A stretch of 64,000 nt of DNA. Origin: Candidatus Pollutiaquabacter aromativorans (GTDB lineage: Bacteria > Bacteroidota > Bacteroidia > AKYH767-A > 2013-40CM-41-45). Numbering within the stretch: position 1 is the stretch's first letter; each line of letters starts with the position of its first letter. Of the stretch, positions 1-30,717 are shown piece by piece. Made by a program: the position numbers and the translations under genes. Location of the stretch: the NCBI GenBank assembly GCA_049177215.1, contig CP185379.1, forward strand, positions 2,921,549 through 2,985,548, given 5' to 3'. The notes under the pieces are model-generated. The model ran no database searches. It was given only the letters and a program-made list of their open reading frames with translations, and had not been told where the DNA came from.

Positions 1-669
1 AGCGTCGACAAGGCCGTGGAGCGCCTGCGCCAGCAGGAGGTGATGATCCATACGATCTACTGCGTCGCGCCCGGCGAACGCAAGGCGGTACGCGGCTGGC
101 AGCGCATCGCGCAATACAGCGGCGGCAAGCACGACGCCATCTCGCTCCGCACCCGGTACTTCGACAATGTCGCGGGCTTCAACCTGCAGCGCTTCCGCGC
201 GCTGAACCGGAAGTTCAACGCCACCTACCTCTATTACGGTGTCGGCGGGGCCAAGCGCTGGCGGATGCAGACGGAAGAAGACAACCACATCTACGTCACC
301 AACACCGAAGGCTATCGCTTCCGGGCGCTGTACAAGATCTCGGACGATTACCAGCAGAAGAACGCCGACTGGGACCTCGTCGATCTCTACTACCGCAACC
401 CGGTCGCCTTCATGCAGGTGGACCGCAAGACGCTGAACGACTCCTGCAGGAAGATGACCAACGCGCAGTTGAAGTCGTACATCATCTACAAGAAATACGA
501 ACGCAAGAAACTCGCGGCGCTGATCGCCGACATGGTCACCGAGAAAGAACTGAAAGACCGCGAAGCGGGCCGACTCACCCAGAAACGCATGCCGACACTC
601 GACGTGGTCAGCCTGCGCATGCTGCGGGAGATCCTGGTGCCCCGCGGCATCCAATGTCCGGAATACTGA
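1..669 (+). CDS. hypothetical protein (5'-truncated by window edge)
   Basis: The open frame runs from nt 1 to the stop at 667-669. Codon usage is coherent. No motif was recognised. Confidence 0.45.
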
Positions 670-670
670 G

Positions 671-1390
671 ATGAGCGCATTCAACAAATGGATCTTCGGC
701 GGGCTCGGCTGGGCCCTGGGCGGACCGATCGGCGGCATCCTCGGCTTCGCCCTGGGCGCGATCACCGAAGAATCCGGCAAGACCTACAAGGCCGAGCCGC
801 AACGCATGCTGCCGAACGACTTCAGCGCGGCGCTGTTGGTACTGTGCGCGGCGGTGATGAAAGCCGACCAGAAGGTGATGCGCTCGGAGCTGGAGTTCGT
901 CCGGCAATTCTTTGCGCGTCAGTTCGGCGAGCAGATCACCCAGGACCGCATGCTGTTGTTCCGGGAGATCCTGAAGCAGGACATCGCCATCGGCGCCGTC
1001 TGCGGACAGGTACGCCAGATGGTGGACCCGCCCTCCCGCCTGCAACTGCTGCACCTGCTGTTCGGCCTGGCCGCGTCCGACGGACAAGTCTCCAAGCCGG
1101 AGCTCACCGTGCTGGAACAGATCGCCCACCTGATCGGCATCGCCGGAAAAGATTTTGAGAGCATCAAAGCCATGTTCGTCTCCGATCCCGACGCGGCCTA
1201 CCGCATCCTCGAGATCGAACGCACGGTCAGCGACGACGAAGTCAAGAAGGCCTACCGCCGCATGGCGATGAAATACCATCCCGACAAAGTCCACCACCTC
1301 GGTCCCGAGTACCAGAAAGACGCCCAGGAAAAGTTCAAGAAGATCAACGAGGCGTATGAGGAGGTGAAGCGGGAGCGGGGGATGAAGTGA
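671..1390 (+). CDS. djlA: DjlA-like co-chaperone with an N-terminal Gly-zipper TM helix, a TerB-like domain and a C-terminal J-domain
   Basis: The N-terminus reads [21 protein letters not shown]. The C-terminus carries the J-domain motif [15 protein letters not shown]. This three-part architecture matches E. coli DjlA. Confidence 0.75.
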
Positions 1391-1576
1391 GTTTCCGGTT
1401 TCGAGTTTCGGGTTTCGGGTTAGTTGAAGGTTGAAGGTTGAAGGTTGAAAGTTGAAGGTTGAAAGTTGAAAGTTGAAAGTTGCGTTTCGGCTCACTGCTC
1501 ACATCCCGCGTCCCTCCATAATAACAACTGGAAACCCGAAACCGGAAACCCGAAACTGCAAACCACAAAACCCGAG
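1391..1576. repeat. long imperfect palindrome built from heptamer tandem repeats: (GTTTCGG)x4, then (GGTTGAA/GGTTGAAA)x9, then a (CCGAAAC)-type right arm
   Basis: Read directly from the sequence. The left arm is gtttccggtttcgagtttcgggtttcgggtt. The right arm is ggaaacccgaaaccggaaacccgaaac. It lies between the djlA stop and the cvpA start. Confidence 0.85.
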
Positions 1577-1607
1577 CACCAAATCTGCGTACAAGCAGTT
1601 CCTATCC

Positions 1608-2075
1608 ATGAACCTGCTCGATCTCCTCCTCGCCCTCATCCTGCTCATCGGACTGGTGAAGGGGTTCATCAACGGTTTCATTTATGAGCTGGCGGTGGTG
1701 GCGAGTTTTTTTCTGGGGATCTACCTGGGCTGGCGACTGGCGGATACGGTGGCTCCGAAAGTCGCGTCGATGCTAGACACTTCCCCGACCACGACGCATT
1801 ACATCGCATTCTTCCTGGTGTTCCTGGCGGTATCGGTGGGGATCTTCTTCCTGGCGAAGTTGCTGGAAGGACTGATCGGCATCGCGGCGCTGGGGATCTT
1901 CAACAAACTACTCGGCGCCCTGTTCGGCTTCGGCAAGTACCTGCTCATCACCAGCGTGGCCCTCTACTTTTTTCACAAGGCCGATGCAAAGTTCCACTGG
2001 CTCAAAGCGGACACTAAGGCGGAGTCGGTCTTGTATTATCGGGTGTTGAAGGTAGCGCCGGCGCTGTGGAAGTAG
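1608..2075 (+). CDS. cvpA: CvpA family membrane protein (colicin V production protein-like)
   Basis: The protein starts MNLLDLLLALILLIGLVKGF and has several TM helices typical of CvpA. The annotated ORF at 1473 starts inside the repeat, so the internal ATG at 1608 is preferred. Confidence 0.7.
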   Translation: MNLLDLLLALILLIGLVKGFINGFIYELAVVASFFLGIYLGWRLADTVAPKVASMLDTSPTTTHYIAFFLVFLAVSVGIFFLAKLLEGLIGIAALGIFNKLLGALFGFGKYLLITSVALYFFHKADAKFHWLKADTKAESVLYYRVLKVAPALWK

Positions 2076-2210
2076 GGACGAGGGACGAGACCGAGGGACG
2101 AGTGTGTTCCGAGTTTCGGGTTCCGAGTTTCGGGTTTCGTGTTAAAATAGCTCTCCCGTACGTTGTATTGTTAAAATTCTATTCACTGTTCACTTTTCAC
2201 TGTTTACTGA
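2076..2210. repeat. heptamer tandem arrays: (GGGACGA)n, then (GTTYCGA/GTTTCGG)n, then (TGTTCAC/TATTCAC)n
   Basis: Read directly from the sequence. Examples are gggacgagggacgagaccgagggacgag and gttccgagtttcgggttccgagtttcgggtttcgtgtt. Confidence 0.8.
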
Positions 2211-2426
2211 AACAAAACGTCCCGGCATCGACTCATCGGGGACCGATCTACGGCCATTTCATGCCTCATACCTGATGGATCATTTCCGCGACCCCTACGG
2301 GGCCGAAATAAAAAATGGATTCTCGGTGCCAGGATACCGTGACCCCTACGGGGTCATCGTTAGCTCAACGACTGGCGTTGCGTTAATCCGCCCGCCCAGG
2401 CATGCTACAGGCAAGGGCAAACTGCC

Positions 2427-2508
2427 TACTGTTTACTGTTTACTGTTTACTGTTCACTATTCGCTATTCGCTATTCGCTATTCGCTCCACACTGTTCACT
2501 GTTCACTC
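2427..2508. repeat. heptamer tandem array (TGTTTAC)x3 (TGTTCAC) (TATTCGC)x4 (TGTTCAC)x2 that overlaps the last about 12 nt of pgk
   Basis: Read directly from the sequence. The pgk C-terminus LSEQ and its stop are encoded within the terminal (TGTTCAC) units. Confidence 0.85.
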
Positions 2509-3713
2509 AAAACAGCCGCTACTCCCGGCAGCACCTTTCCCTCAAAATACTCCAGCAGTGCTCCACCGCCGGTGGAAACATAGGAGACTTTGTCGCCGAA
2601 ACCGAATTGGTTGACGGCCGCGGCGGAGTCGCCACCGCCGATGAGGGAGTACGCGCCCTTGACCGTCGCTTCCGCGATGGCTTCCGCGACTTTGCGGGTA
2701 CCGTTGGCGAACTTTTCCATTTCGAACACGCCCATCGGTCCGTTCCAGAGGATGGTCTTCGATTCGCGGATCACCTGCTGGAAGTCGGCCACGGCCTGCG
2801 GGCCGATGTCGAGTCCCATCCAGCTGTCGGGGATCGCGTTGTTGGCCGCGATGGAGGTGTTGGCGTCCTTGTCGAACTTGTCGCCGAGCACCGAGTCCGC
2901 TGGCAGGAGCAGTCGACAACCTTTCGCCTTTGCCTTTTCGATCAGTGATTTGGCCAGGTCGAGCTTGTCTTCTTCCACAAGCGAGTTGCCGACCTGTCCG
3001 CCCATGGCTTTGAAGAACGTATACGCCATCCCGCCGCCGATGAGAATGTTGTCGGCCTTGTCGAGGAGGTTTTCGATGATGAGGATCTTATCGCTCACCT
3101 TCGCTCCGCCCATCACCGCGGTATACGGACGGGCGGGCTGGTGCATGACCTTCTCAGCATTGTCGAGCTCGGCGGCCATGAGGTAGCCGAAGCATTTCTT
3201 GCCGGGGAAGCTGGAGGCGATGACGGCGGTGGAAGCATGCGCACGGTGCGCGGTACCGAAGGCGTCGTTCACGTAGAAGTTGCCGTGCCGCGCGAGTTGC
3301 GCGGCGAATTCCGCGTCGCCTTTCTCTTCCTGCTTGTAGAAGCGCAGGTTCTCCAGCAGCAGCACTTCACCCGGCTTCAGGGCAGCCGATTGAGCGTAGG
3401 CGTCGTCGCCGATGCAATCGTCGGAAAAGCGGACCGGCCGACCGAGCAGTTCGGCGGTGCGTTGTACGGCATGCCGCAGGGTGAATTTCTCACGATCGAT
3501 GGATCCATCTTCTTTCAGCTTCTTGAGCGGGCGGCCCAGGTGGGAAAGCAGGACCACCGATCCTCCGTCGGCGAGGATCTTGTTGATGGTCGGCAGGGCA
3601 GCCCGGATACGGGTATCGTCGGTGATCCGGAAAGACTTATCCAGGGGAACATTGAAATCCACACGCACCAGCACCCGCAGGCCGGCGAAGTTGAACGAAT
3701 CGACGGTTTTCAT
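2496..3713 (-). CDS. pgk: phosphoglycerate kinase
   Basis: The N-terminus [25 protein letters not shown] is the Pgk hallmark. The length is about 405 aa. The internal ATG at 3711-3713 on the minus strand is chosen rather than the 3776 ORF start. Confidence 0.92.
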
Positions 3714-3766
3714 GGGTGCGAAGGTAAAAAACGTGAAAGGCACCTGACCGCTCCGTGTCAAGTTGA

Positions 3767-4540
3767 TTACTGACACGCAACCACCAACCGCAACGCCCCA
3801 TCAAAGAACGGCCCACTGCGGTAGTGCCCGAACCGGCGTTCCCATTCGCCGTTTTGGAGGGCGGTGGCGAGGCGCTCGACCAGCACGGCTTCCTGCCCGG
3901 CCGGCAGGAAACCCCAGGCCGATTGCGCCTTGCGGACTTCCGCCCGCAGAAAGGCTTCGGGCCGGGCGTAGAAGGCTTCCTGGAATCCGTCGACGCAATC
4001 GATCGGAATCGGCACGCGGATGATCTCGGCTGCGCCGCCCAATGCCGCTGCGATCGTATCGAGCTTCGGATAACGCGCACGCTCTACGGCAACGAGTTCG
4101 GGGAAGTAGTGGGCGTTCCAGAAATCGTCCAGCCCGTCGGGATCGTAAGTCATGATCACTACCGGTCCGCGCGTCACCCTCCGCATCTCCCGCAAACCGG
4201 CGGGAAGGTCGGGCCAGTGGTGCACGCTGAGCAACGACATGGAAGCATCGAACGCGTTATCGTCGAACGGAAGCTGATCCGCGCGTGCGTCGATGGCGGG
4301 AACGCGACCGGCAGACAGGCGTTGCACACGCATGCTGGCCGAGGGTTCTACCGCAACCACATAACGATCATCCGGCTCGTACGAACCCGCACCCGCGCCG
4401 ACGTTCAGGATGGTCCGGGCTTTCCCAAGCGCCCGATGGATGTACGCCGCGATACGCGGATCGGTCCGGCGATGCCGGGCATAGTGAACCGGAGCGGCGT
4501 CGTAGTCGAAGCCGGGGTGGTGGAAGTCGGGATCCTGCAT
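3767..4540 (-). CDS. class I SAM-dependent methyltransferase
   Basis: The motif LNVGAGAG is SAM-binding motif I. The length is 257 aa. Confidence 0.7.
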
Positions 4541-4586
4541 GTTCAGGTAGAATAGACTAGCGAGAACGGTTACGAAGTTGATTTAT

Positions 4587-5042
4587 TCAAGTGCGCTGAT
4601 TCCATTCCATCTCCACCAGGTCGTACCCGGGCGCCCAGAAATCGGGAACGGTTCGCAGGGTTCGAAAACCGTTCTTTTCGTAGAAGCCATAACTGATCTG
4701 ACTGGTCCTGACCTTTACCACCTGAATGCGCGGATCGGCCGCCAGCCGGAGCAGACGATGCTGCAACAAACGTGTTCCATAGCCTTTCCCCTGCGCGTCG
4801 GGGTGGAAAACATCCCAACTGATGCGGGCGCATCGCTCCTCCGGAAAATAATTGATGCCGCCGCAACCGATGATCCGCTCCGCTTCACACGCCACAGCAT
4901 AGTCTTCGCGTTCCGAGTCGAGGTAACGCGCAAAGTCGTCCGCTTCGGTCGGCGCGAAGAAGGTCGGAATGTTCAACGCCAGCAGCGAAAGCAGCACCGG
5001 CCGGTCGGCCGGCACGTACGGTCGGATAGAAAAATCGGGCAT
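4587..5042 (-). CDS. GNAT family N-acetyltransferase
   Basis: The protein is about 150 aa and has an acetyl-CoA binding region resembling (Q/R)xxGxG (RLLQHRLLRLAA..GYG). The fold is GNAT-like. Confidence 0.6.
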   Translation of the reverse strand: MPDFSIRPYVPADRPVLLSLLALNIPTFFAPTEADDFARYLDSEREDYAVACEAERIIGCGGINYFPEERCARISWDVFHPDAQGKGYGTRLLQHRLLRLAADPRIQVVKVRTSQISYGFYEKNGFRTLRTVPDFWAPGYDLVEMEWNQRT

Positions 5043-5094
5043 CGCTCCGTAAAGGTACGCGATGCCCGAGGGTGAAGGCGGATGCGGGCAGGAA

Positions 5095-5601
5095 TTAACG
5101 ATGCTGCGCCAGCAATTCGTCGAGGTTGCCGTGCGCCATGGTGAAGCCTTCTTCGAAGCCGAGCTCGATGATGCGCTGCAGGTCTTCTTCCGAATTGAAG
5201 GTCACATCCACCGTCACTTCCGTGCCTTCCGGAACCGGACGGAATTCATTCTTCCACGCCATACCGGGGAACGCATCGGTGCGTACGCCCTGCTCGTCGC
5301 AAAAGAAATCGTCGCCGGTGAATTCGCGTTGCGGCCGGATCGTGTGGAAATTGAAGCACGCGAACATTTTGGAACCGTCCGGCCCGAGCATGTAATAGAG
5401 CCAGTGTCCGCCTTCGCGGAAGTCGTACGATTTGGTGACCGCCTTGAAGGGCTTCGGCGCCCACCATTGTTCGAGCAGGTCTTTTTCCGTCCATGCACGC
5501 CAGACCAGGTCGATCGGACCCAGGAACGTACGGTGGATGATCAGTTTGCGGTTCGCGAGATCCTTAACAATTCGCGTCGGAGGAGGGGTTGTCATTTGCA
5601 T
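5095..5601 (-). CDS. SRPBCC/AHSA1 (activator of Hsp90 ATPase homolog-like) domain protein
   Basis: The protein is 168 aa. It lies downstream of and overlaps an ArsR-family regulator, which is typical for this family. Confidence 0.6.
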
Positions 5602-5929
5602 TGGTTTTGTTTTTTAGTTGAAGGAGGAGGTCGTCGAGCTGGGTGTAACGTTGTTCCCAGAGTTGACGGAATTGTTCGATCCAGTCGGCCACTGACTTCA
5701 GCTTCTCGGGCGGTACCTGATAATAGATCTCGCGACCCTGCTGCCTGCTCTCGATGATGCCGCATTCGTCGAGGATGCGGACGTGCTTGGATATCGCCTG
5801 ACGGGAGACGGAGAAATTCTCGGCCAAGGCGTTCGGCGTCATGGCTTGCAGGACCAACAGACTGATGATCGCGCGCCGGGTGGGATCGGCAATGGCCTGG
5901 AAAATATCGCGGCGTGGTTGGGGTGACAT
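5564..5929 (-). CDS. ArsR/SmtB family transcriptional regulator
   Basis: A winged HTH is present ([46 protein letters not shown]). The internal ATG start at 5927-5929 is preferred. Confidence 0.8.
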
Positions 5930-5976
5930 TGTGCAACTATATGGTTGCAAATATATGTGCAATTATATGGTTGCAA
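5929..5976. promoter_or_regulatory. candidate ArsR operator: two direct copies of TGTGCAAyTATATGGTTGCAA, each containing TGCAA...TTGCA inverted half-sites
   Basis: Seen in the sequence immediately 5' of the arsR-like start codon on the minus strand. Confidence 0.45.
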
Positions 5977-5994
5977 AAGGAGTGGAGAATAAAA

Positions 5995-6018
5995 ATTAGT
6001 AATTAGTAATTAGTAATT
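5995..6018. repeat. (ATTAGTA)x3 heptamer array
   Basis: Read directly from the sequence. Confidence 0.8.
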
Positions 6019-6037
6019 GAAAATCAATGATTTAAAA

Positions 6038-6700
6038 TTACAAAGTGGCGAAGAACCCGATTTGGGCCCTGCAAATCATGATTTCGTAGCGGACATTTCC
6101 CGCGTCGGGGTGTACGGTCCAGGTGTCTGTTAGTTGGAATCCTTCGTTGGCCAGATCCGCTCGGAGGGCTTCCGGTTCGTGGTTATTGAACCACACCCGA
6201 TCGCCGGTGCTACCGGTACGAAAGCCGGTCTCGCCTCCGGGTTCGACCACGATGCTGAGGTAGAGTTGTCCGTTGGCGACCAGGTTCGCCCGACAGTAGC
6301 GTAAGAACTCGCGCACCTCCGCGCCGGACAGATACGGCAGGCCGAAGCCGCACACGATCGCATGATAGGGTTGCGCCGGTATCGGCAAGGAACGAAGATC
6401 CCCCTGTACGAATTGCGCAGCCGGCACGAGGTGTCGTGCCTGCTCAACCATGGCAGGGGCATAGTCGATGCCGGTGATACGCAGATCGGGTCGCTGTTTT
6501 AAAAAGTAGTGGGCCATGATGCCGGGACCGCAGGCAGCATCCAGCACACGCGCCTCTTTTGGTAAACGCGACAAGAGTGCATCGTATCCCGTCTTGTAAA
6601 GCGCAGGGTCGAGAAATTTCTCCGCGTATAAGGCGGCGTTTTTATCCCAACTGGACTGGGATTCCGCTTCATCAAACGAGTCTTTATCCTTCGAATGCAT
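6038..6700 (-). CDS. class I SAM-dependent methyltransferase
   Basis: The motif VLDAACGPG is motif I. The start at MHSKDKD (cat at 6698-6700) is chosen to avoid overlapping the divergent holB promoter region. Confidence 0.65.
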   Translation of the reverse strand: MHSKDKDSFDEAESQSSWDKNAALYAEKFLDPALYKTGYDALLSRLPKEARVLDAACGPGIMAHYFLKQRPDLRITGIDYAPAMVEQARHLVPAAQFVQGDLRSLPIPAQPYHAIVCGFGLPYLSGAEVREFLRYCRANLVANGQLYLSIVVEPGGETGFRTGSTGDRVWFNNHEPEALRADLANEGFQLTDTWTVHPDAGNVRYEIMICRAQIGFFATL

Positions 6701-6761
6701 AACCAAGTGCAAGATAAGGTTACAGGGTACTCCAAGGCGGCATTTCGTAACTTCGCCACCC

Positions 6762-7901
6762 ATGCGGTTCGCAGCGGTTATCGGCCACAAATCCGTGAAG
6801 GAAAAACTCACGGCTACCGCCCGGGAAGGGCGGGTGAGCCATGCGCAGCTTTTTTTGGGACCCGAAGGCGCGGGCAACCTGGCCATGGCCCTTGCCTATG
6901 CGCAGTTCCTCGTCTGTGAAAACCGCGAAGCGGCCGATTCCTGTGGCACGTGTCCGGCCTGTGTGAAGATGAGCCGCATGGTCCATCCGGATGTTTCGTA
7001 TAGTTATCCGGTGGCGGGCAAGGAAAAGATCAAGAATCCGAAGAGCGTCGACTTCGTGGAAGAATGGCGCAAAGCGGTGACCGACAATCCGTATCTCGGC
7101 TACGCCGAATGGGTCGAACAACTCGACATCGAGAACAAGCAAGGACTCATTTCCGTCGACGAAGCGGCCGACATCCTGCGCCGGCTCAGCCTGAAAGCGG
7201 TGGAGGCGCCGTATCGGATCGTCCTCATCTGGTGTCCGGAAAAGATGAATGCGCAATCGGCGAACAAATTGCTCAAGATCATCGAAGAGCCGCCGGTCGA
7301 CACGGTCTTCCTGCTCGTCGCCAGCCAGTACGAACAACTGCTTCCTACCATCACCTCGCGTACGCAACTCGTCAAGGTGAACCGCCTCCGCGACGACGAA
7401 CTGACTACCGCGCTCGTCGAACGACACGGGCTCAGCCGGGACGACGCGAAGAAAGTGGCGCACCGTTCCGACGGCAGCTACCGGCAGGCGCAGCTCATCT
7501 TATCGGAAGAGACGCCCGAATCGGATCCGGCCGCGCAGTTCCTTGCCTGGATGCGCGCCTGCCTGCAACTCAACGTTGGCGCACTGTCCAAACAGATGGA
7601 CGAATTCGCGAGCGAGTCGCGCGAACGACAGAAGTCCTACCTGCAATTCTGTCTGCAGATCGTGCGCGAATGCGTGTTGCTGCAATACGGCGACGAACGG
7701 TTGGTGCGACTGGAAGGAAAAGACATGGAAGCCTACCGGAAGTTCGCGCCTTTCGTGCATACCGGCAACATGGACATCTTTTCAAAAACGCTCAACGACG
7801 CCATCTTCCACCTCGAGCGCAACGCCAACGCGAAGATCCTGTTCATGGACGTTTCGTTTTCCATCCACCGGCTGTTGCAGCTGAAGGCGGTTCCCGCCTG
7901 A
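6762..7901 (+). CDS. holB: DNA polymerase III subunit delta prime
   Basis: The N-terminus reads GHKSVKEKL...HAQLFLGPEGAGNLAMALAYAQFLVCEN...CGTCPACVKM. This is a clamp-loader AAA+ domain with a zinc module. Confidence 0.85.
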   Translation: MRFAAVIGHKSVKEKLTATAREGRVSHAQLFLGPEGAGNLAMALAYAQFLVCENREAADSCGTCPACVKMSRMVHPDVSYSYPVAGKEKIKNPKSVDFVEEWRKAVTDNPYLGYAEWVEQLDIENKQGLISVDEAADILRRLSLKAVEAPYRIVLIWCPEKMNAQSANKLLKIIEEPPVDTVFLLVASQYEQLLPTITSRTQLVKVNRLRDDELTTALVERHGLSRDDAKKVAHRSDGSYRQAQLILSEETPESDPAAQFLAWMRACLQLNVGALSKQMDEFASESRERQKSYLQFCLQIVRECVLLQYGDERLVRLEGKDMEAYRKFAPFVHTGNMDIFSKTLNDAIFHLERNANAKILFMDVSFSIHRLLQLKAVPA

Positions 7902-7909
7902 AGCCCGGC

Positions 7910-9835
7910 TCAGTCCGTTTTCAGGATGCGGCAATTACCTGCTTCTGTCTGCAACAAGTAAACTCCGCTGGCAAGTCCGTCAAGACTCAGGTGAAGATCG
8001 TGTTCTCCGGTAGCCGAACTTTCACGTAGCCGTCGTCCTTGCAGGTCGGTGATCAACAGCCGGCCCTGAATCGGTTGGTCCGAGATCACTTGAAGATCTC
8101 GCTGAGTCGGGTTCGGGAAAACACGGATACCGGAAGTCGGCGCGATTGAATTCAGGGCATTGACGATCTGCCGGATGTTGACCTGTAAACGGAAACCGAC
8201 GAACAGGTCCGAAGCTTCCATCGGCTGCCAGGACCCGAAGGAACTCTTCGCCCAGGCCTTGCGGTAACGGTAGTTCTTCCAGTTCGAAGACAGCGAAGCG
8301 CTGTTTGTGTGCTCGCGCAGACAAACGAAATACTCGCCATCATTCAAGGGGAATAAGCCCGATTCCAACGGCAAGGTAACCGGCGTGCCCGCAACATAAG
8401 CCGGGGGCACGTGATAGGTAAGCGTGCGGACGATCAGGTTGCCGGGTGCACCGTTGAATGTCCAGAGCTCCGCATACAAGCTGTCACCTGCAACAGGTGC
8501 TTCGAGTGAAAAGGTGATGGAAGAGATCTCCGCCCCGACCGGCAATTCGAAGGATTGTCCGACTCGACCACCATTGCCGAGTCCGAGACCTGTAAAAGCC
8601 GGTCCTTCATCATAGGCCAGGGTGGAATCACTTACCTCGAATCGATAGTCGAGCGAATCGTTTGGCGTGAACTGATCCGCGGGTGTACTGAGGAGACTGG
8701 CGACTACCCGGATGCGGCCTGTGGCCGAAGGATGGAACCCTGTAGGAAAGTACCCGGAAGATCGATCGGCAGGCGCCATCGCTGCAACACTTCGTGTCGT
8801 GTTCACGAGCAGGGACTGAAGCGAATCGTAGAGGGCAGCTTGCACTTCGACCACATCGAGGGTATCCGTACCGACATTTCGGAACTTACAGTTCCATTCC
8901 AGTTCATAAGCCTGTGCCAGCGCCAGCGGCACACGCGTATAGGGTGGCGAGAGCCGAAGGGTATCCATCGCGGCATCCGCTGCGAGCAGTGAATCCGAGC
9001 TGAGTTCGACCGAGAAGAGCAGATCGTCGGGAACTCCCTGCAGTACTCCGACCAGACTCAGGCGGCCGGGTGCGAGCCCGTTGGCAATGGACAAGCCTCC
9101 TGCCTGACCATAAGCGAGCTGATCGCCCAGTCGGTGCATGACGGGGAAAGAGACACCATCGGGAATACCGCTCGCGACCGGTATGCGTACGATCCGGTGG
9201 AGACCGTCCGGCGTGATCCGTGCAAATGCCCAGAGGTATGGCCCACCGGACGTCACCGCGTCGAATGCAAGGCCGTAGATGCCGGCCAGTCCGTGCACGG
9301 CAGACGGAATGGTCTGCAAGGTCGCGCCAGTCCGGTCGAAGAGCACCATGGGATAATCGTCGTATGCCACCCAGAACGCGTCGCGGGTGGAATCATACGC
9401 GACGCCTTTCGGGAACAAGGGCAGCAGAATGGAATCCGTAACGGCTAAGGTGGAAGGATTGACTTCGTAGAGGTAGATGCCCTGGTCCTGCGCGATGTAG
9501 AGACTACTGCCATCCGTCGTGATCGCGGTGGTACCGGTGTCGGGCAAGCCGGTAATGGTGAGCGAATCCACCAGGCTGCCACCGACGGAAAAGCGGCGGA
9601 TCATGGGCCCGTCGAATCCGCCGGTCCAGAATCGCCCCTGGAAGTAGAGCGCGCAGGTGTAAGCATCGTTACCGGAAGGTGCACTGAGGTTGAAGCCGGA
9701 CTGCGGGTCGAACAGGCGAGCCGAAGATGGCTCGGTGTGAAAACCGGACATCCTGAAGCGAAGGTCCTGGTCGGATTGCGCAGCGAGCCGGAGTGTGATG
9801 CCCGCAATCAGGAAGAGTGTCAAACGAAGGTTCAT
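7910..9835 (-). CDS. secreted protein with a T9SS C-terminal sorting domain
   Basis: A signal peptide MNLRLTLFLIAGITLRLAAQ is present. The C-terminal CTD reads GVYLLQTEAGNCRILKTD. Confidence 0.7.
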   Translation of the reverse strand: MNLRLTLFLIAGITLRLAAQSDQDLRFRMSGFHTEPSSARLFDPQSGFNLSAPSGNDAYTCALYFQGRFWTGGFDGPMIRRFSVGGSLVDSLTITGLPDTGTTAITTDGSSLYIAQDQGIYLYEVNPSTLAVTDSILLPLFPKGVAYDSTRDAFWVAYDDYPMVLFDRTGATLQTIPSAVHGLAGIYGLAFDAVTSGGPYLWAFARITPDGLHRIVRIPVASGIPDGVSFPVMHRLGDQLAYGQAGGLSIANGLAPGRLSLVGVLQGVPDDLLFSVELSSDSLLAADAAMDTLRLSPPYTRVPLALAQAYELEWNCKFRNVGTDTLDVVEVQAALYDSLQSLLVNTTRSVAAMAPADRSSGYFPTGFHPSATGRIRVVASLLSTPADQFTPNDSLDYRFEVSDSTLAYDEGPAFTGLGLGNGGRVGQSFELPVGAEISSITFSLEAPVAGDSLYAELWTFNGAPGNLIVRTLTYHVPPAYVAGTPVTLPLESGLFPLNDGEYFVCLREHTNSASLSSNWKNYRYRKAWAKSSFGSWQPMEASDLFVGFRLQVNIRQIVNALNSIAPTSGIRVFPNPTQRDLQVISDQPIQGRLLITDLQGRRLRESSATGEHDLHLSLDGLASGVYLLQTEAGNCRILKTD

Positions 9836-10061
9836 GATGGGTGTGAATTCGGTTAAAGCGATCGAAAGTTAAAATAAAACCGCAGCTCACAAGCGTACCC
9901 GAATTGTCATATTAGCGAACCGGCCTTCATCCTCCTTCCGACAAAGAATACGCGCCTTTCAACAATCACTTGCTGGAAAACCGGGCCCGGCTTCCGGCCG
10001 GAAAGCTGAAGCATTTCTTTCTTTCGCAACATCATCCAACCTTTCACCAAACCCACGCACC

Positions 10062-10916
10062 ATGCATCGTCCTTTACATTCACTTTCGTTCGTACTGCTG
10101 TTCGTCGCTCTTCAGTTGTCCGTTACTGCACAACAGGTATGCGACTCCGTTTTCACACCCTGCTTCAATACGACTTCCGGCACCGGCTTCTTCCTCGACC
10201 TGGAAGCCGCGACCGATGTGACCATTGAGGGCTTTTCCACCATGTCGCAGGGAGCCGGAACCCGCGATGTGGAATTGTACTATCGTCCCGGTGGTTTTGC
10301 CGGATACGAAACCGACGCCGCTGCCTGGACGCTCGCCGGCAGTGCCAGCGGCTTTGATCCTGTGAGTGCCATTTCATGTCCCATTCCGGTGACACCGCTG
10401 CCAATCACCTTCAACGTCTGTATCCCGGCAGGAGAGCGCTACGGTTTTTACCTCGCCAGCACGAGCGGTTCCGGTTCCTTTGAACTGTATGATACGCTCA
10501 CGACCGGGACCCTGTTCTCGGACGACGGTACGCTGCGTCTGTACGTCGGCAAAGGCGCCTTTGCTTTCGGAGCATTCACCGGATTTGTCACGCAGAACAA
10601 ACTCATGCAGGGTACGATCCAGTATTCCTGCGGCTGCTCGACCGGACTGCAGCATCCATCGGCTGCATCGAACGTGCGCTTGTTCCCTTCCATCGTGACG
10701 CGCGAATTCCAACTTGACCTTTCCAAGGCACAGGGTGTTTATCAATCCGCACGCATACTGGACAGTGCCGGTCGACTGCTCGATCAGCTCGAACTGGACG
10801 CCACCGCGACCAGCATTCTCCGAAACGTCGCTTCGCTTTCGCCGGGTGTGTACACCCTGCAATTGACCGGTTTGAAATCCTCCGCGCAGCTCAAATTCGT
10901 GCGGAGCAGCGATTAA
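10062..10916 (+). CDS. secreted protein with a T9SS C-terminal sorting domain
   Basis: A signal peptide is followed by an AQQ cleavage site. The C-terminus reads PGVYTLQLTGLKSSAQLKFVRSSD. Confidence 0.7.
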   Translation: MHRPLHSLSFVLLFVALQLSVTAQQVCDSVFTPCFNTTSGTGFFLDLEAATDVTIEGFSTMSQGAGTRDVELYYRPGGFAGYETDAAAWTLAGSASGFDPVSAISCPIPVTPLPITFNVCIPAGERYGFYLASTSGSGSFELYDTLTTGTLFSDDGTLRLYVGKGAFAFGAFTGFVTQNKLMQGTIQYSCGCSTGLQHPSAASNVRLFPSIVTREFQLDLSKAQGVYQSARILDSAGRLLDQLELDATATSILRNVASLSPGVYTLQLTGLKSSAQLKFVRSSD

Positions 10917-11021
10917 TCGGTCACCCAAACACGACGTTCAAGCGTGCAGGGAATGCAGTGGATGCGTACGCGTGGATACCATTGCTTTACCTTATCATGG
11001 TCATGTATCTGACGATCAGCC

Positions 11022-11052
11022 TCTTAGCATTGGCGAAAATTCACTATTTTTG
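11022..11052 (+). promoter_or_regulatory. candidate Bacteroidota sigma-A promoter (-33 TTG, -7 TAtTTTTG) for the PSP1 gene
   Basis: The sequence cattggcgaaaattcactatttttg sits about 32 nt upstream of the ATG at 11084. It matches the TAnnTTTG consensus. Confidence 0.35.
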
Positions 11053-11083
11053 AACCTCATCAGAATTTCCTCCCCTATTTATT

Positions 11084-12688
11084 ATGGCTTGCGCTTCGTG
11101 CGGAACAGGAACAGACGGGAAACCGGGTGGGTGCCGCAGCAACGGCACCTGTAGCACAGGTGGCTGTAACAAGTTGAACGTCTACAATTGGTTGTCGGAT
11201 ATGGTGTTGCCCAACGGGCAGCAGTCGTTCGACGTTGTAGAAGTACGCTTCAAAGGCAGCCGCAAAGAATTTTTCCGGAACAAAGAGCTGCAGGACCTGC
11301 GTGTGGGTGATATGGTAGCGGTGGAAGGAAGTCCCGGTCACGACGTCGGCACGGTGTCGATGGTTGGCGAGTTGGTGCGCTTCCAGTTGCGCAAGAAGAG
11401 TCTGGCAGAGAATTCGGAGTCGATCAAAGCGCTCTACCGCAAAGCCAAGCCGGGCGATGTGGAGAAGTGGTGCGAGATGAAAGACAAAGAGCCCGCCACG
11501 CGCAAGCGCACGCGGGAGATCATCGAATCGCTCAAGCTCAACATGAAGTTGAGCGATGTCGAATTCCAGGGCGACGGCAAGAAAGCCACCTTCTACTATA
11601 CCGCTGAAGAGCGCGTCGATTTTCGAGAACTCATCAAGCGTCTCGCCGATGAGTTCCGTATCCGGGTCGAGATGCGGCAGATCGGCATGCGGCAGGAAGC
11701 CAGCCGCTTGGGCGGCATTGGTGTCTGTGGCCGTGAACTTTGCTGTTCCACCTGGCTCACCGATTTCAAGACCGTATCGACCAGCGCGGCGCGCTATCAG
11801 AATCTTGCGCTCAATCCCGCCAAGCTCGCGGGACAATGCGGCAAGCTCAAGTGTTGTCTTAACTACGAACTGGATTCGTACATGGACGCGGTACGCGACA
11901 TTCCGGCTTCGAACATCATCCTCGAAACCGAGAAAGGTCGCGCGTTCCACCGCAAGACCGATATCTTCAAGCGATTGATGTGGTACGCGTTCAGCGAGAA
12001 CGAGCGGAGAGGCGAAGGCGAACAAGCGTTCACCGGCGAAGGCAACTGGGTCGTCATGCCCGTCGATCGTGTGAAGGAGATCGTCGCGCTGAACAAAGAA
12101 GGCAAGAAGCCGGGCGAACTCATGGAAGGCGACTGGCTGGAAGTGGAGGTCGAAGAAGAACCGGACTACGCCAACGTGGTTGGTCAGGACCGGATCGACC
12201 GGATGGACAAGAAGAAGAAGAAAAAGAAGAAGAAGAAATCATCCGGCAGCGGCAACGCTCAACAGGCAGCTCCAACGGGTCAGGCACAGGGCGGACAACC
12301 CCAGGGTGGCCAACCGAAAGAACGCGGACAGCAAGGTGGTCAACAACGGCAGCGACCCGACAACCGTCCGCAAGGCGGCAAAGGAAGCGGGCCTCGTCCG
12401 CAGCAGAACCAGCAGCAAGGCGGCAAACCGCAGCAACAGGGTCAGCAACAGAACCAACAGCAACGTCAGCAACAGGGGCAGCGTCCCCAGCAGCAAGGAC
12501 AAAACAACAACCGTCAGCAGCAACAGGGACCGCGTCCGCAACAGCAACAAACTCCGCGTCCGCAGGGCGAACAGCGTCCGCAGCAGGAGCAGCGCCCACA
12601 GGGCGGAAACCGGGAGCCACGTCAGCGGCCTTCCGCACCTCCGCGTCAGTCGCCCGGACAATCAACGCCGCCGCCAGAATCGAACTGA
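11084..12688 (+). CDS. ricT: PSP1 C-terminal domain protein (RicT/YaaT homolog) with a Cys-rich N-terminus and a long Gln/Gly/Pro/Arg-rich low-complexity tail
   Basis: The N-terminus reads MACASCGTGTDGKPGGCRSNGTCSTGGCNKLNVYNW. The PSP1 core includes CCSTWLTDFKTVS and GKLKCCLNYE. The tail starts with KKKKKKKKKK and is followed by QQ/GQ/PQ repeats. Confidence 0.8.
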   Translation: MACASCGTGTDGKPGGCRSNGTCSTGGCNKLNVYNWLSDMVLPNGQQSFDVVEVRFKGSRKEFFRNKELQDLRVGDMVAVEGSPGHDVGTVSMVGELVRFQLRKKSLAENSESIKALYRKAKPGDVEKWCEMKDKEPATRKRTREIIESLKLNMKLSDVEFQGDGKKATFYYTAEERVDFRELIKRLADEFRIRVEMRQIGMRQEASRLGGIGVCGRELCCSTWLTDFKTVSTSAARYQNLALNPAKLAGQCGKLKCCLNYELDSYMDAVRDIPASNIILETEKGRAFHRKTDIFKRLMWYAFSENERRGEGEQAFTGEGNWVVMPVDRVKEIVALNKEGKKPGELMEGDWLEVEVEEEPDYANVVGQDRIDRMDKKKKKKKKKKSSGSGNAQQAAPTGQAQGGQPQGGQPKERGQQGGQQRQRPDNRPQGGKGSGPRPQQNQQQGGKPQQQGQQQNQQQRQQQGQRPQQQGQNNNRQQQQGPRPQQQQTPRPQGEQRPQQEQRPQGGNREPRQRPSAPPRQSPGQSTPPPESN

Positions 12689-13804: not shown

Positions 13805-15277
13805 ATGAGAAGACTACTCTTATTGATATGCTGTAGCCTATGGTTAAGCACTTTGGCTCAGTCGCCCAAAAAGAAACCCATTCAGGTGGCTCCAGTCATT
13901 TCAAAGCCTTTACCCTCCGCTACTAAGCCCATTCAGCAGGCAAGTTCGGAAAAAGAGAAACCAAGCAACCGGGAAGGGGAGAAAATGACGTCCAGCGACA
14001 TTCTTCCATACCCTATTTACCAGAAGCGAATGGCAAATGGTTTGAACGTCGTAACAGTTCCTTATCCCAGCCCGGGCGTTGCAGCATTCTATATCATTGT
14101 GCGGGTTGGGTCGCGAGACGAGATTGAAATTGGCAAGTCCGGCTTTGCGCATTTTTTCGAACACATGATGTTCCGGGGAACGAAACGATTTCCAAAGGAA
14201 GCATACAGTGCAGCTTTAAAATCTACCGGAGCATCTGCAAATGCTAACACTAGTCTCGACCGCACAGTTTATCACATGACCGCTGATGCATCAAAATTAG
14301 ACCTACTGTTCGATCTGGAAGCAGACCGCTTCATGAATCTTGATTATTCAGAACAAGATTTTCGAACCGAAGCGGGCGCGGTAAAAGGTGAATACACCAA
14401 GAACTCCTCGAACCCGTATACCAAATTGAACGAGTTGATCCAGAATGCGGCTTTCGATCAACACACCTATAAACATACAACGATGGGCTTCTTAAAAGAC
14501 ATCATTGATATGCCTAACCAATTTGCATATTCCCGAAATTTTTTCAGCAGATTTTATCGACCGGAGTATACAACCATCCTCGTGGTTGGTGATGTAAAAC
14601 CGGGGGCGGTGGAAGGATTAGCCAATAAGTACTTTGGACGATGGGAAATGGGGAACTATAAATCTCCGGTACCCCAGGAACCAGCACAATCTGGTGTTCG
14701 TTTTGCGCACATGAAAAAACCAGGCTTCCCACCCTACCTGAGTTTGAACTACCGGGGCCCGGCCTATTCCGACAATTCGAAAGACCTTGCTGCGCTGAAT
14801 ATCCTTGGCGCGGTACTCTTCTCCGAGAACTCAACCCTTTATGAGGATCTGGTTATGAAGGACCAGACGGTACGTTCATTGGATGCTGGAATCTATCCAA
14901 CCCGAGATCCATTTCTATTTAGCGTAGAAGCTTCATTGGTCGCCGATTCCTCCATGATCTTGATTCAAAATCGTTTACTCGAAGCACTTGGACAAGCTAA
15001 GGTCAAGGCACTGGAATCGAAGAAAATTGATCAAGCTCGAGAAAACATCCGGAATTCTTTTGCCATGAGCATTGACAATCCAACTTCGATTGCGGAAGCA
15101 TTGAGTAGCGCCATTTGGTTAACAGGAGATCCCGAATCCCTGAACCGACAGTATCGTCAATACGAGCAAATCACCGCCGATGATATCCAACGCGTAGCCA
15201 ACCAGTATTGCACGGAAGATCGTCTAACGATTGGAACCATATCCAGTGCTGAAAACTCCCCCTTCAAAAAGCCATGA
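13805..15277 (+). CDS. M16 family zinc peptidase (insulinase/pitrilysin-like), catalytic subunit
   Basis: The inverted zinc motif HFFEH is present (GFAHFFEHMMFRGT). A signal peptide is present. Confidence 0.85.
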   Translation: MRRLLLLICCSLWLSTLAQSPKKKPIQVAPVISKPLPSATKPIQQASSEKEKPSNREGEKMTSSDILPYPIYQKRMANGLNVVTVPYPSPGVAAFYIIVRVGSRDEIEIGKSGFAHFFEHMMFRGTKRFPKEAYSAALKSTGASANANTSLDRTVYHMTADASKLDLLFDLEADRFMNLDYSEQDFRTEAGAVKGEYTKNSSNPYTKLNELIQNAAFDQHTYKHTTMGFLKDIIDMPNQFAYSRNFFSRFYRPEYTTILVVGDVKPGAVEGLANKYFGRWEMGNYKSPVPQEPAQSGVRFAHMKKPGFPPYLSLNYRGPAYSDNSKDLAALNILGAVLFSENSTLYEDLVMKDQTVRSLDAGIYPTRDPFLFSVEASLVADSSMILIQNRLLEALGQAKVKALESKKIDQARENIRNSFAMSIDNPTSIAEALSSAIWLTGDPESLNRQYRQYEQITADDIQRVANQYCTEDRLTIGTISSAENSPFKKP

Positions 15278-16833
15278 ATAAACGTATGTTATTCCGATTT
15301 ATCTTCCATGTGGTGCTCATGACGGGCTTCCCCATCCTAGCCTTTGGCCAGGAAGTGATTGAAATACCTGATTTACAATCCAACAAAGTCGTCATACGCC
15401 TGGTATTCCGGAATGGGTCGATTTGCGACCCTCCCGGCAAAGAGGGCATCACTGATGTCACGACTTCCCTAATAGCAGAAGGAGGTACCCAGAAACTTAG
15501 CTCCACTGAAATCACCCGTACCATCTATCCATGGGCGGTTCGCATGTACTCTTCTACTGATAAAGAAACGTCAACATTTAGTTTTGAGGTTCTTACAAAA
15601 CACCTTGATCAATTTTACCCGATCATCCGCGATCTGTTGCTTTCACCAGGATTTCGGGAGGACGACTTCTCAAGAGTGATTTCGAACCAGAGAAATTATG
15701 TTGATGAAGTTATTCGTCAATCATCAGACGAGGAGTATGGTAAGAAGTACCTCGAGTATAAGCTGTTCGGAGGTTGCCCCTACGCCCATCTTACTGCCGG
15801 AACATCTTATAGTTTGGCGGAGCTATCTCTCGAAGACATTAAAACGCATTACAAAAATTACTTTACATCCGGGAAACTTCTGATCGGATTAGCCGGCAAC
15901 TACCCGGCATCGTTGAAAGAACAGATCCTAAACGATTTCAAATCATTCAATGCACATACACCATTTTGTGAAGTCGGTGACGCCCGTACCCCGGAGGGCC
16001 TTCAACTCAGTATCATTTCAAAAGAAGGCGCTATGGGCTCTGCGATTTCTGCAGGGTTCCCACTTAACCTTACACGATCAGACGACGAATTCGCTGCGTT
16101 AATGGTTGCCAATTCCTGGCTAGGCGAACATAGAAAATCCTACTCTCGCCTTTATCAAAAAATCAGAGAAGCTCGATCCATGAACTACGGAGATTACACG
16201 TATATTGAATGGTACGAGAACGGGGGTTCAAATATGCTCCCACCACCCGGAACTCCCCGCTCATTGAATTATTTCAGCATATGGTTACGACCAGTTCAAA
16301 CGGCCGCCAGCCTTCGTAAACAATATGAAGAACTCAAGGATATTCAATTTGGACATGCTCCCTTCGCCCTGAAGATGGCTATCCGAGAGATCGATGCCCT
16401 CATTAAAAATGGAATGAGTCAGGAGGATTTTGAGGAAACACGTGAATTCCTAAAGAGTTACACTAAGTTATATGCTCAAACTCCCGCGCGACGTCTTGGA
16501 TACCTGATGGATTCCAGGTTTTATGGGCGCGAGGATTGGCTAACGACGCTTCAAAAATTACTATCAGGACTAACATTAGAAGACGTCAATTCCGTGATCC
16601 GAAAATTTTTACAGACACAGAATATGTTCGTGGTGATTGTTACTGACCCTGAGGAGGCGAAAGCAATCAACAAAGCACTGGGCTCCGGCAGCGTAACACC
16701 TGTAGCATACTCCGACCAAATGAAGAAGTCCCTCAGCGTAAGTATTCTCAAGGAAGATAATGAAGTTGAAGCCTATCCATTAAAAGTGAACACAATTGAA
16801 ATCGTCAATTCCCTGGACACCTTTAGAAAATAA
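15274..16833 (+). CDS. M16 family peptidase, second (non-catalytic M16B-like) subunit
   Basis: The start overlaps the upstream stop in an ATGA arrangement. The overall M16 architecture is present without HxxEH. Confidence 0.75.
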   Translation: MNKRMLFRFIFHVVLMTGFPILAFGQEVIEIPDLQSNKVVIRLVFRNGSICDPPGKEGITDVTTSLIAEGGTQKLSSTEITRTIYPWAVRMYSSTDKETSTFSFEVLTKHLDQFYPIIRDLLLSPGFREDDFSRVISNQRNYVDEVIRQSSDEEYGKKYLEYKLFGGCPYAHLTAGTSYSLAELSLEDIKTHYKNYFTSGKLLIGLAGNYPASLKEQILNDFKSFNAHTPFCEVGDARTPEGLQLSIISKEGAMGSAISAGFPLNLTRSDDEFAALMVANSWLGEHRKSYSRLYQKIREARSMNYGDYTYIEWYENGGSNMLPPPGTPRSLNYFSIWLRPVQTAASLRKQYEELKDIQFGHAPFALKMAIREIDALIKNGMSQEDFEETREFLKSYTKLYAQTPARRLGYLMDSRFYGREDWLTTLQKLLSGLTLEDVNSVIRKFLQTQNMFVVIVTDPEEAKAINKALGSGSVTPVAYSDQMKKSLSVSILKEDNEVEAYPLKVNTIEIVNSLDTFRK

Positions 16834-16851
16834 GAACCATATCCGCACAGA

Positions 16852-16888
16852 AAAAAGGCCGACACTAATAAATGTCGGCCTTTTTCAT
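16852..16888. terminator. bidirectional rho-independent terminator
   Basis: The hairpin is aaaaaaGGCCGACActaataaaTGTCGGCCttttt. It lies between the convergent M16B and ferritin genes. Confidence 0.8.
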
Positions 16889-16902
16889 ACCTGTTTTTTC
16901 AT

Positions 16903-17412
16903 TCACTCTCCAGCCCCGTCTGCCGGCGTCATCTGCAACAGATCACGATCGAACAGGTACATGCCGCTCTTGTCGCCGCCGATCATCTTCAGCTTGTCGA
17001 GCACCGTACGCGCAAGGCGCTCTTCCTCGATCTGTTCGGATACATACCACTGGAGGAAGTTGTGCGTGGTGTAGTCTTTTTCCTTCAGGCACTCATCGAC
17101 CAGCTTGTTGATCTCGGCCGAAACGCCGACCTCGTGCTCGAGGATCTGCTCGAACAACTGTTGTACGTTCTTATAGGAGGATTGAACGGCTTTGAGGGTG
17201 GGCACCAGCGCGTGTCCACCACGCTCGTTGATGAACTTCATCAACTTGAGCATGTGCATCCGCTCTTCGTCGGAATGCTTATACAGGAAGTTGCTCACGC
17301 CTTCGAATCCCTGTACCTCCGCCCAGGAAGCCATGGCAAGGTAAACGTTGGAGGAGGAAGCCTCCAGTTCGACCTGCTTGTTCAACAGGGTATTGATCTT
17401 CTTGGAAAGCAT
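16903..17412 (-). CDS. ftnA: ferritin (non-heme, Ftn-like)
   Basis: Ferroxidase-centre residues are in an E...ExxH arrangement (LEASSSNVYLAMASWAE, EERMHMLKL). The length is 169 aa. Confidence 0.8.
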   Translation of the reverse strand: MLSKKINTLLNKQVELEASSSNVYLAMASWAEVQGFEGVSNFLYKHSDEERMHMLKLMKFINERGGHALVPTLKAVQSSYKNVQQLFEQILEHEVGVSAEINKLVDECLKEKDYTTHNFLQWYVSEQIEEERLARTVLDKLKMIGGDKSGMYLFDRDLLQMTPADGAGE

Positions 17413-30712: not shown

Positions 30713-30717
30713 TCTGT

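Follow-up and report, generated by a model that had tools for sequence, protein, structure and literature searches.

Heptanucleotide tandem arrays in the gene spacers of Candidatus Pollutiaquabacter aromativorans: families, unit turnover and placement behind genes

A stretch of 64,000 nucleotides from the genome of the bacteroidete Candidatus Pollutiaquabacter aromativorans (contig CP185379.1, positions 2,921,549 to 2,985,548; hereafter the window, with positions counted from its first letter) carries tandem arrays of heptanucleotide units in the spacers between its genes, far in excess of what base composition predicts. Arrays of the same few families recur in independently assembled relatives, where they differ from those of the window by whole units. 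We consider it probable, at roughly three chances in four, that these arrays arise by slippage in a 7-nt register, followed by mutation and re-amplification, that composite modules containing them have been copied between loci, and that selection confines them to the DNA behind genes. An original prediction, made from the letters of the window alone, had listed several of the arrays and argued that different sequences sharing one period are not expected from random drift.

The period-7 excess in the window and its relatives

Arrays were detected with Tandem Repeats Finder and with independent period scans, a single scoring rule being applied to every period. Under this rule the window holds 10 strong period-7 arrays covering 412 nt (15-16 once weaker ones are counted), whereas each of the other periods from 2 to 21 yields 0-2 arrays, those at 14 and 21 merely re-finding the period-7 arrays. 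By chance, first-order Markov simulations yield on average 0.045 period-7 arrays per window, never more than 2 in any of 200 runs, and 0.016 when limited to the window's non-coding DNA. The arrays listed in the original prediction are all present, at or within a few bases of where it had placed them, namely at 2074-2102, 2182-2209, 2427-2508, 5994-6018, 33251-33329, 44935-44993 (units of AACTGGT, GTAATTA and TTGGTGA type) and 45002-45064, and its argument against random drift holds when set against this chance model. Further arrays, not in its list, lie at 1391-1421, 1422-1482, 1526-1575, 2106-2143, 31706-31732, 31797-31817, 40050-40076 and 40113-40140. Outside the detected arrays there is essentially no residual period-7 signal in the window's intergenic DNA, so the remaining intergenic DNA does not consist of decayed arrays.

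The relatives of the window show the same spike at period 7. The best species representative for the window's PGK is a metagenome-assembled genome (MAG) at 78% identity; Dawidia, Chryseolinea and Ohtaekwangia come next with about 70%. A search with CvpA recovered a 95% identical protein in 'Candidatus Pollutiaquabacter sp.' GCA_016713765.1, on the 2.7-Mb contig JADJON010000001.1 (locus L081, 95.8% nucleotide identity to the window), and a 397-kb ENA contig (L082) is 97.9% identical over window positions 1-12079. L081 contains 20 period-7 arrays in about 20 kb, with one array each at periods 2 and 8; L082 contains 22 in about 20 kb, with none at any other period that is not a multiple of 7; and five metagenome contigs of the genus hold 4-11 period-7 arrays apiece and zero at other periods. 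As an outgroup sample we took 80 loci of other Bacteroidota (1.18 Mb), which yield 21 arrays at period 7, 17 at period 6, a coding-compatible period, and at most 5 at periods 4, 5 and 8-12. A heptamer preference is thus weakly present across the phylum Bacteroidota. Relative to these other Bacteroidota, the density of period-7 arrays is about 9-fold higher in the window and about 20-fold higher in the partly biased sample of the genus, reaching about 1 array per kb in some regions.

Could the arrays be assembly artefacts or chance low complexity? Short-read contigs do often end inside heptamer arrays (L083, L086, L088, L089 and L096), so that arrays will be under-represented in MAGs of this kind, and repeats are known to disturb assembly. 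Against this, identical or near-identical arrays recur across independent assemblies made by different methods: the NCBI MAG that contains L081, the long ENA contig L082, and the short-read contigs L083, L085, L093 and L095, the last four of which agree with the copy numbers of L081 and L082 where they overlap. The GGGTTTC-type array at 40044-40076 is identical in strains L085 and L086. Since close strains assembled independently carry the arrays, and chance supplies only about 0.05 per window, collapsed or expanded low-complexity sequence, which the original prediction had named as a possible refutation, has virtually no chance of being the explanation.

Families, composite modules and unit turnover

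Where the original prediction took the heptamers to be different sequences of independent standing, comparison across the genus gives another picture. In a census of 38 arrays from about 99 kb of non-redundant DNA, with rotation, reverse complement and one mismatch permitted, the arrays collapse into 7 families, and 31 of the 38 fall into just three (CTGTTCA/CTATTCG, GTTTCGG and GGGACGA); some are parts of one composite. To judge by their sequences, the 'different' heptamers are not independent, and form a few families joined by single substitutions, rotation or reverse complement. The order of units within and between arrays is also structured. Variant units are clustered in blocks at the genus loci (for example CTATTCG x20 followed by CTATTCA x5, or blocks of CAGTGAA, CAGTAAA, TAGTGAA and TAGCGAA), and neighbouring arrays step by single bases, as in the series that leads from CTGGTAA to TTGGTGA at 44935-44993 (Table 1). 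Such blocks and one-base steps are characteristic of slippage that duplicates and deletes units locally.

Comparison between strains, suggested with the original prediction, revealed copy-number variation in six orthologous arrays, always by whole units (7, 14, 21 or 49 nt) and between flanks that stay about 96-99% identical. The AGTTGAA array (1422-1482) has 8.7 units in the window and 9.6 in L082 (+7 nt). From the array at 2106-2143, in the CvpA-PGK spacer, one 14-nt GTTCCGAGTTTCGG unit is missing in both L081 and L082, and both have one TACTGTT unit (7 nt) fewer in the array at 2427-2508. The AATTAGT array (5994-6018) has 3.6 units in the window, 6.6 in L082 (+21 nt) and 10.6 in L081 (+49 nt). 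The array at 33251-33329 has 11 units in the window and 13 in a strain of 99% identity (L095), and an 84% identical species (L097) carries a degenerate related array at the equivalent site.

The clearest link between families is a composite in which several of them stand together. Window positions 2072-2210 form one such copy, consisting of a GGGACGA array, an irregular core (CGAGACCGAGGGACGAGG..), a GTTTCGG-type array, a linker of about 40 nt and a CTATTCR array. By alignment, further composites that share this irregular core, and whose linker is recognisably homologous, are present at five or more other loci in at least three species; the homologous linker was aligned at about 7270-7310 in L081 and at two sites in L091. 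A BLAST-short search with the 42-nt linker returned orthologous copies only, the diverged copies emerging by alignment. The 13-mer GAGACCGAGGGAC was found 27 times across 7 genus loci and not once in the 80 loci of other Bacteroidota, and the composite signature has no match in viral contigs.

Adjoining the composite is a second element, a conserved core of about 220 nt designated P (2207-2426), which is single-copy in the window and has heptamer arrays on both flanks. In relatives it stands near pheS as two blocks of opposite orientation, each with three copies joined head-to-tail by heptamer arrays; in L081 these are at 6140-6920 (plus strand) and 2207-3069 (minus strand). Ten copies were aligned; the core repeats at intervals of about 260-290 nt with no unique spacers. 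The terminal bases of the core, GCAAACT GCCTACT GTTTACT, are themselves degenerate heptamers, and amplification of one of these, GCCTACT, has produced separate arrays at cluster borders. A metagenome scan for the core recovered five contigs only, all of the same genus, and the core has no match in plasmids, phages or viral contigs; as its matches are confined to one genus, it is not a widespread element.

Two established classes were considered for this material and rejected. A reading as CRISPR arrays fails on both arrays and core, the arrays being contiguous 7-nt units and the core repeating without unique spacers. A known structured RNA family is likewise rejected for the core, which matches no Rfam covariance model: Rfam gives no hit at gathering score in the window and none at E<=1 on the core copies of L081, while tRNA and tmRNA searches were negative both for the window and for the core copies. 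Consensus folding of the 10 copies shows negligible covariation, the copies being too similar to provide any of use, and lends the reading as an RNA gene neither support nor contradiction; the core may be an RNA gene, a satellite or a mobile element.

One might suppose instead that the arrays are parts of an actively mobile, non-autonomous mosaic resembling miniature inverted-repeat transposable elements and moved by some transposase or recombinase, with heptamer arrays as its ends or preferred targets. The invariant irregular core (CGAGACCGAGGGAC) and the unique linker, found at many loci, would be expected of such an element, as would the repetition of P with the same type of array on both sides, as if it had been inserted repeatedly into an array; the occurrence of different families at the same site in related species also fits. 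However, neither target-site duplications nor defined termini nor empty sites were seen at the loci, no transposase is consistently linked (the neighbours are housekeeping genes, with one unrelated IS3 element in L091), collections of phage, plasmid and viral sequences lack the core, and the order of the pheS mosaic is kept between species, which points to vertical inheritance. We regard a mobile element as rather unlikely. The IS3-family pair of L091 (HTH_Tnp_1 plus rve, 3766-5226) adjoins a (GAATAGT)6 array, and nothing suggests that it mobilises the array.

Families also replace one another at a fixed site. Directly behind the stop codon of the same outer-membrane protein (OMP) gene, a GGGTTTC pair is present in the window species, an AATTAGT pair together with degenerate GTTTCG-like remnants in a species of 87% identity, and a GGGACGA array in one of 80% identity; three species with three families behind one stop indicate that families turn over there. 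The families range in G+C from 14% (AATTAGT) to about 86% (GGGGGAC). That they share only their length, and that sequence at array borders becomes amplified, suggests that amplification is length-specific and not sequence-specific. This bears on the idea, proposed earlier for TAACTGA repeats and for Nostoc heptamers, that such arrays are binding sites. The protein in question would recognise units of 7 nt, and might be a nucleoid protein or a single-strand binder, whether cold-shock-like or of another kind. Species of 80-100% identity do retain the same few motifs, yet a reader of sequence would have to accommodate at least seven families of such disparate composition, border sequences such as GCCTACT give rise to new arrays as a length-specific process would have it, and no candidate protein was identified. 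Binding arrays are therefore improbable. Stop codons in all three frames were rejected as a common property of the units, there being none on either strand in the GTTTCGG and GGGACGA families.

Placement behind genes and opposed arrays

The arrays were described as intergenic in the original prediction, and this is almost wholly correct: all lie in spacers, except that 12 nt of the array at 2427-2508 encode the end of PGK. With genes called by codon-usage scoring and Pfam support, arrays are found in none of 10 divergent spacers (0 of 1,449 nt), in 3 of 8 convergent spacers (21% of the spacer DNA) and in 4 of 23 co-directional spacers (6.6%), and 8 of about 15 arrays start no more than 20 nt from a stop codon. 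The neighbouring genes are housekeeping genes, among them PGK, CvpA and an efflux pump. Between PGK and CvpA, which are convergent and separated by 4 nt in the nearest other genus (L001), the spacer of the window measures 420 nt, so that the arrays are lineage-specific additions to formerly tiny spacers, which is enough to account for their contact with stop codons. At 2496-2508 the array provides the minus-strand stop codon of PGK and the four codons before it (LSEQ); PGK of the nearest other genus ends ...PGVTAIQG, so that the array has replaced the native C-terminus.

This placement argues against phase or contingency variation, raised in the original prediction, whereby changes in copy number would switch adjacent genes. 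Contingency microsatellites of Haemophilus and Neisseria have units of 1-5 nt, sometimes 7 nt, and lie within the reading frame or the core promoter of a surface or restriction gene (PMC2651432, PMC11868660). The arrays studied here share with them the change of length by whole-unit slippage and vary between strains, and heptamer repeats in Nostoc affect promoter activity (bioRxiv 10.1101/2022.06.06.494920); one array, at 33251-33329, is separated by 59 nt from the gene start downstream of it, and stands beside a conserved block. On the other hand, this array is outside the putative core promoter, none occurs in a divergent promoter spacer, and most lie downstream of stops, commonly abutting them, or between convergent genes. 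Moreover, apart from the last 12 nt of PGK, no array runs within coding sequence, in which a change of 7 nt would cause a frameshift, and the 3' and convergent spacers concerned belong to housekeeping genes and not to typical surface or restriction genes. Sigma-70 promoters are not enriched in the array spacers. We consider switching of this kind very improbable.

A feature absent from the original prediction is that arrays often face one another. Opposed (GGTTTCG)n/(CGAAACC)n pairs occur at 1390-1421/1526-1569, 31706-31726/31796-31816 and 40044-40076/40112-40146, with arms of 21-33 nt that are 76-88% complementary (84-88% for 1391-1421 against 1526-1569). Their folding energies, expressed as z-scores against dinucleotide shuffles, are -2.25 (1391-1575), -3.77 (31706-31817) and -4.69 (40044-40146). 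In a fourth spacer, 44935-45064, the left arrays are approximately the reverse complement of the right ones, and an imperfect hairpin of about 55 bp is predicted (z = -3.46). Opposed arrays recur in relatives, as an AATTAGT pair in L087 and a GTTTCGG pair in L084.

A terminator or stabiliser role of the predicted hairpins is plausible. On this proposal the arrays, chiefly the opposed pairs, would be selected 3'-end modules that, as RNA or DNA hairpins and in the case of the GGGACGA arrays as a G-quadruplex, terminate transcription, protect mRNA 3' ends or insulate convergent genes, with slippage merely tuning the structures. Several lines of evidence lean this way. In four spacers the opposed arrays begin 0-13 nt past stops and fold far better than shuffles; pairing recurs in other species with other families; divergent spacers are free of arrays; and the GGGACGA arrays are placed like the quadruplex-forming heptamers of Rehm et al. 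Against it, a U-tract is lacking, no T-run following any array hairpin in the window, and a terminator scan is not enriched (13 found versus 8.4 +/- 3.1 in shuffles). Either strand folds about equally well, which gives no indication of selection on the RNA, and compensatory changes between strains were not observed; proximity to stops is expected in any case if the ancestral spacers measured only a few nucleotides, and many arrays are unpaired. We hold this proposal as tentative and less likely than not, though it is compatible with slippage and copying as an added function. The class of intrinsic (Rho-independent) terminators was rejected, the hairpins being present without the U-tract or the enrichment in the scan.

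G-rich arrays offer a second kind of structure. The array at 33251-33329, G-rich on the antisense strand, contains the only G-quadruplex motif of the window (G3+N1-7 x4), whereas that at 2074-2102 has three regular G3 tracts and one interrupted unit. For the repeat, ViennaRNA predicts -28.3 kcal/mol with its G-quadruplex option versus -9.2. Through the (GAGGGAC)n array runs an open reading frame (ORF) of 81 codons on the plus strand (33169-33414), with the translation EGRGTRDEGRGTGD..., a string of the EGRGTRDEGRG type, which overlaps the start of the exonuclease gene; it is an artefact, and probably a false gene call of the kind that annotation pipelines could make.

Table 1. Heptamer arrays and associated elements of the window
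Feature	Position	Strand	Context
(GTTTCGG)4.4	1391-1421	+	directly after TerB-DnaJ stop (1388-1390); left hairpin arm
(AGTTGAA)8.7	1422-1482	+	in loop of the 1391-1575 hairpin
(GAAACCC/GAAACCG) array	1526-1575	+	reverse complement of GTTTCGG; right arm; ends 33 nt before CvpA start (1608)
(AGGGACG)4.3, GGGACGA type	2074-2103	+	overlaps CvpA stop; holds irregular CGAGACCGAGGGAC of composite 'C' element
(GTTCCGAGTTTCGG)2.2 / (GTTTCGG) array	2106-2143	+	second module of composite
Non-repetitive composite linker	2140-2181	+	between GTTTCGG-type and CTATTCR-type arrays
(TTCACTG/TTTACTG)4	2178-2209	+	left flank of 220-nt core
Multi-copy core P, about 220 nt	2207-2426	+	several hairpins, two of them GACCCCTACGGGG hairpins
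(TACTGTT)4 (CACTATT)(CGCTATT)3 ... (CACTGTT)2	2427-2508	+	last 12 nt are the PGK 3' end, minus strand
(AATTAGT)3.6	5994-6018	+	about 20 nt downstream of stop of minus-strand methyltransferase gene
GGTTTCG-type array	31706-31732	+	immediately after stop of glycosyltransferase gene (30676-31704); left hairpin arm
CGAAACC/AACCCGG array	31796-31817	+	abuts stop of minus-strand HhH-GPD gene (31824); right hairpin arm
(GAGGGAC/GGGGGAC)11.3	33251-33329	+	59 nt upstream of minus-strand exonuclease gene
GGGTTTC-type array	40044-40076	+	7-13 nt past OMP stop (40035-40037); left hairpin arm
CGAAACC/GGAACCC array	40112-40146	+	right hairpin arm
CTGGTAA > CTAGTAA > TTAGTAA > TTAGTGA > TTGGTGA stepwise arrays	44935-44993	+	convergent spacer
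(CTATTCG)2 (CTATTCA)(CTGTTTA)(CTGTTCA)...	45002-45064	+	ends 3 nt from stop of minus-strand outer-membrane efflux gene (45068)

Several other features of the region deserve mention. TerB-DnaJ and CvpA are co-directional in the window (671-2075) and convergent in the 83% identical relative L084 (114-1516), with array-bearing spacers at the breakpoints; the repeats may mediate rearrangements. At 5932-5977 there are two copies of a palindromic unit of about 22 nt (TGCAACTATATGGTTGCA-like; Tandem Repeats Finder period 14), directly upstream of a 121-aa regulator of the ArsR/HTH_5 family (5567-5929, minus strand) and overlapped by a promoter-like match. From its sequence this looks like the regulator's own operator, separate from the heptamer phenomenon. 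Repeats of period 3, 9, 12, 15 and 18 at 12188-12605, including (AAG)9.7 and CAGCAACAGGGT, lie inside a PSP1-domain ORF (11084-12688) and are coding low complexity, unrelated to the heptamers. The window bears sorting domains of the type IX secretion system (T9SS), which together with the PGK matches place it in the Bacteroidota. Its G+C is 0.43-0.49 at 14000-18000, which encodes two M16 peptidases, and at 26000-28000, which encodes a T9SS-tailed protein and small ORFs, compared with about 0.55-0.60 elsewhere; these stretches may be acquired DNA or local compositional variation.

Relation to known repeats and the origin of the arrays

By their head-to-tail 7-nt units, their excess over composition, their non-coding position and their whole-unit polymorphism, the arrays belong with the heptameric long simple sequence repeats (LSSRs), and resemble the short tandemly repeated repetitive (STRR) sequences. 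As relayed by two later papers, heptanucleotide repeats are the most abundant class of long simple sequence repeats in most prokaryotic genomes, and slippage was proposed to be tied to how long a stretch of DNA the polymerase holds (Mrazek 2007, via PMC4679880 and PMC4692102). On that second-hand account, the likeness extends to over-long 7-nt tandems, the dominance of heptamers, a mostly intergenic position, a free-living non-pathogenic host and a proposed origin by slippage; the present lineage differs in its host, in very high local density and in its dispersed composite modules. The G-rich heptamers GGGNATC and GGGGA(C/T)T of Xanthomonas and Nostoc are 89-93% intergenic, rare between divergent ORFs, and situated no more than 50 bp from a stop when on the sense strand, or upstream when on the antisense strand; they undergo transcription, differ in copy number among relatives and include some inverted pairs (Rehm et al. 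2015, PMC4692102). The GGGACGA and GGGGACG arrays share with them one tract of at least three G per unit, and two arrays of the window match their placement. Motif and phylum differ, however, G-rich units are one of several families in the window, most of which are not G-rich, and the G-quadruplex is here predicted.

The STRR heptamers of cyanobacteria, reportedly CCCCAGT, TTGGTCA and CAACAGT in the 1990 account of Mazel and colleagues, are alike in forming few families with many intergenic copies each, different families often standing adjacent. Those units belong to heterocystous cyanobacteria and differ from the arrays of the window in phylum and motif, so that the latter are not members of the STRR families proper. 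In L084, positions 3100-3320 consist of TTGGAAT/TTGAAAC-like units, then (CCTAGTC)4 plus CCCAGTC, then CTCGTCC units; the CCCTAGT/CCCCAGT units at 3211-3247 are one mismatch from or identical to STRR1 (CCCCAGT), which may be coincidence. The repetitive extragenic palindromic (REP) sequences of enterobacteria, with units that are palindromes of 20-40 nt, and the bacterial interspersed mosaic elements (BIMEs) are mosaics of short motifs in opposed orientation behind genes, and form hairpins. The opposed, hairpin-forming repeats behind genes described here are analogous mosaics, but they are tandem 7-mers, no RAYT-like transposase was seen, and they are not members of that class. A further comparison is with the TAACTGA intergenic direct repeats of Beggiatoaceae, cyanobacteria and five Bacteroidetes (MacGregor 2015, PMC4679880). 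In Gramella and Aequorivita the spacers with long TAACTGA arrays also contain other heptamer repeats; in close relatives these spacers are short and lack repeats (PMC4679880). The Beggiatoaceae arrays lie just upstream of starts, in contrast to those of the window, which lie behind stops, and TAACTGA itself was not seen.

The heptamer excess, though unexpected from drift, is thus not new, having been documented in prokaryotes before (PMC4679880, PMC4692102). Intergenic site, proximity to stops, scarcity between divergent genes, pairing in inverted orientation and variable copy number have likewise all been published for heptameric repeats. What is new is the host lineage, a Bacteroidota genus of wastewater-type metagenomes; our literature search found no mention of Pollutiaquabacter.

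How, then, might such arrays come about? On the account we favour, arrays would grow by replication slippage in a 7-nt register that escapes correction by mismatch repair, and point mutation followed by re-amplification would give new families. That the families are few would reflect composite modules copied between loci, by recombination or mobilisation, rather than independent origins. Selection would hold the arrays to the DNA behind genes, where ancestral spacers were tiny, and any function would be structural, through 3' hairpins or a G-quadruplex, and not on/off switching of genes.

Several points weigh against this account. First, slippage alone gives no reason for a unit of 7 nt, nor does it explain the presence of three families at one OMP-stop site in three related species or the frequency of opposed arrays. 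Second, since neither a mobilising enzyme nor a target-site duplication nor an empty-site allele was found for the composite at the loci examined, its dispersal is deduced only from the shared irregular sequence. Third, the genus loci were partly picked up through repeat-bearing regions, so that array density in them is skewed upward, and L081 and L082 resemble long-read assemblies with small homopolymer errors, which makes the copy numbers there slightly uncertain. The unexplained unit length, the opposed arrays and the change of family at one site leave some chance, though we think it unlikely, that a small shared set of families is re-seeded behind stops, often as opposed pairs, by a dedicated mechanism working in a 7-nt register, be it an enzyme that builds or moves the units or a factor that reads them. 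If that were true, the arrays would be slippage-tunable 3' hairpin modules that replace conventional terminators, and the question of why bacterial repeats favour seven could be put to a direct test within a single lineage.

Among the long microsatellites of bacteria, heptanucleotide repeats form the commonest class, and we know of no established reason for the 7-nt unit or general function of these repeats. In practical terms, the arrays break short-read assemblies of wastewater Bacteroidota and yield spurious ORFs such as that at 33169-33414. For the biology of heptameric repeats, the lineage provides an unusually dense natural system, which combines many families, unit changes that can be measured between strains, opposed hairpin arrays, and composite modules that show spread.

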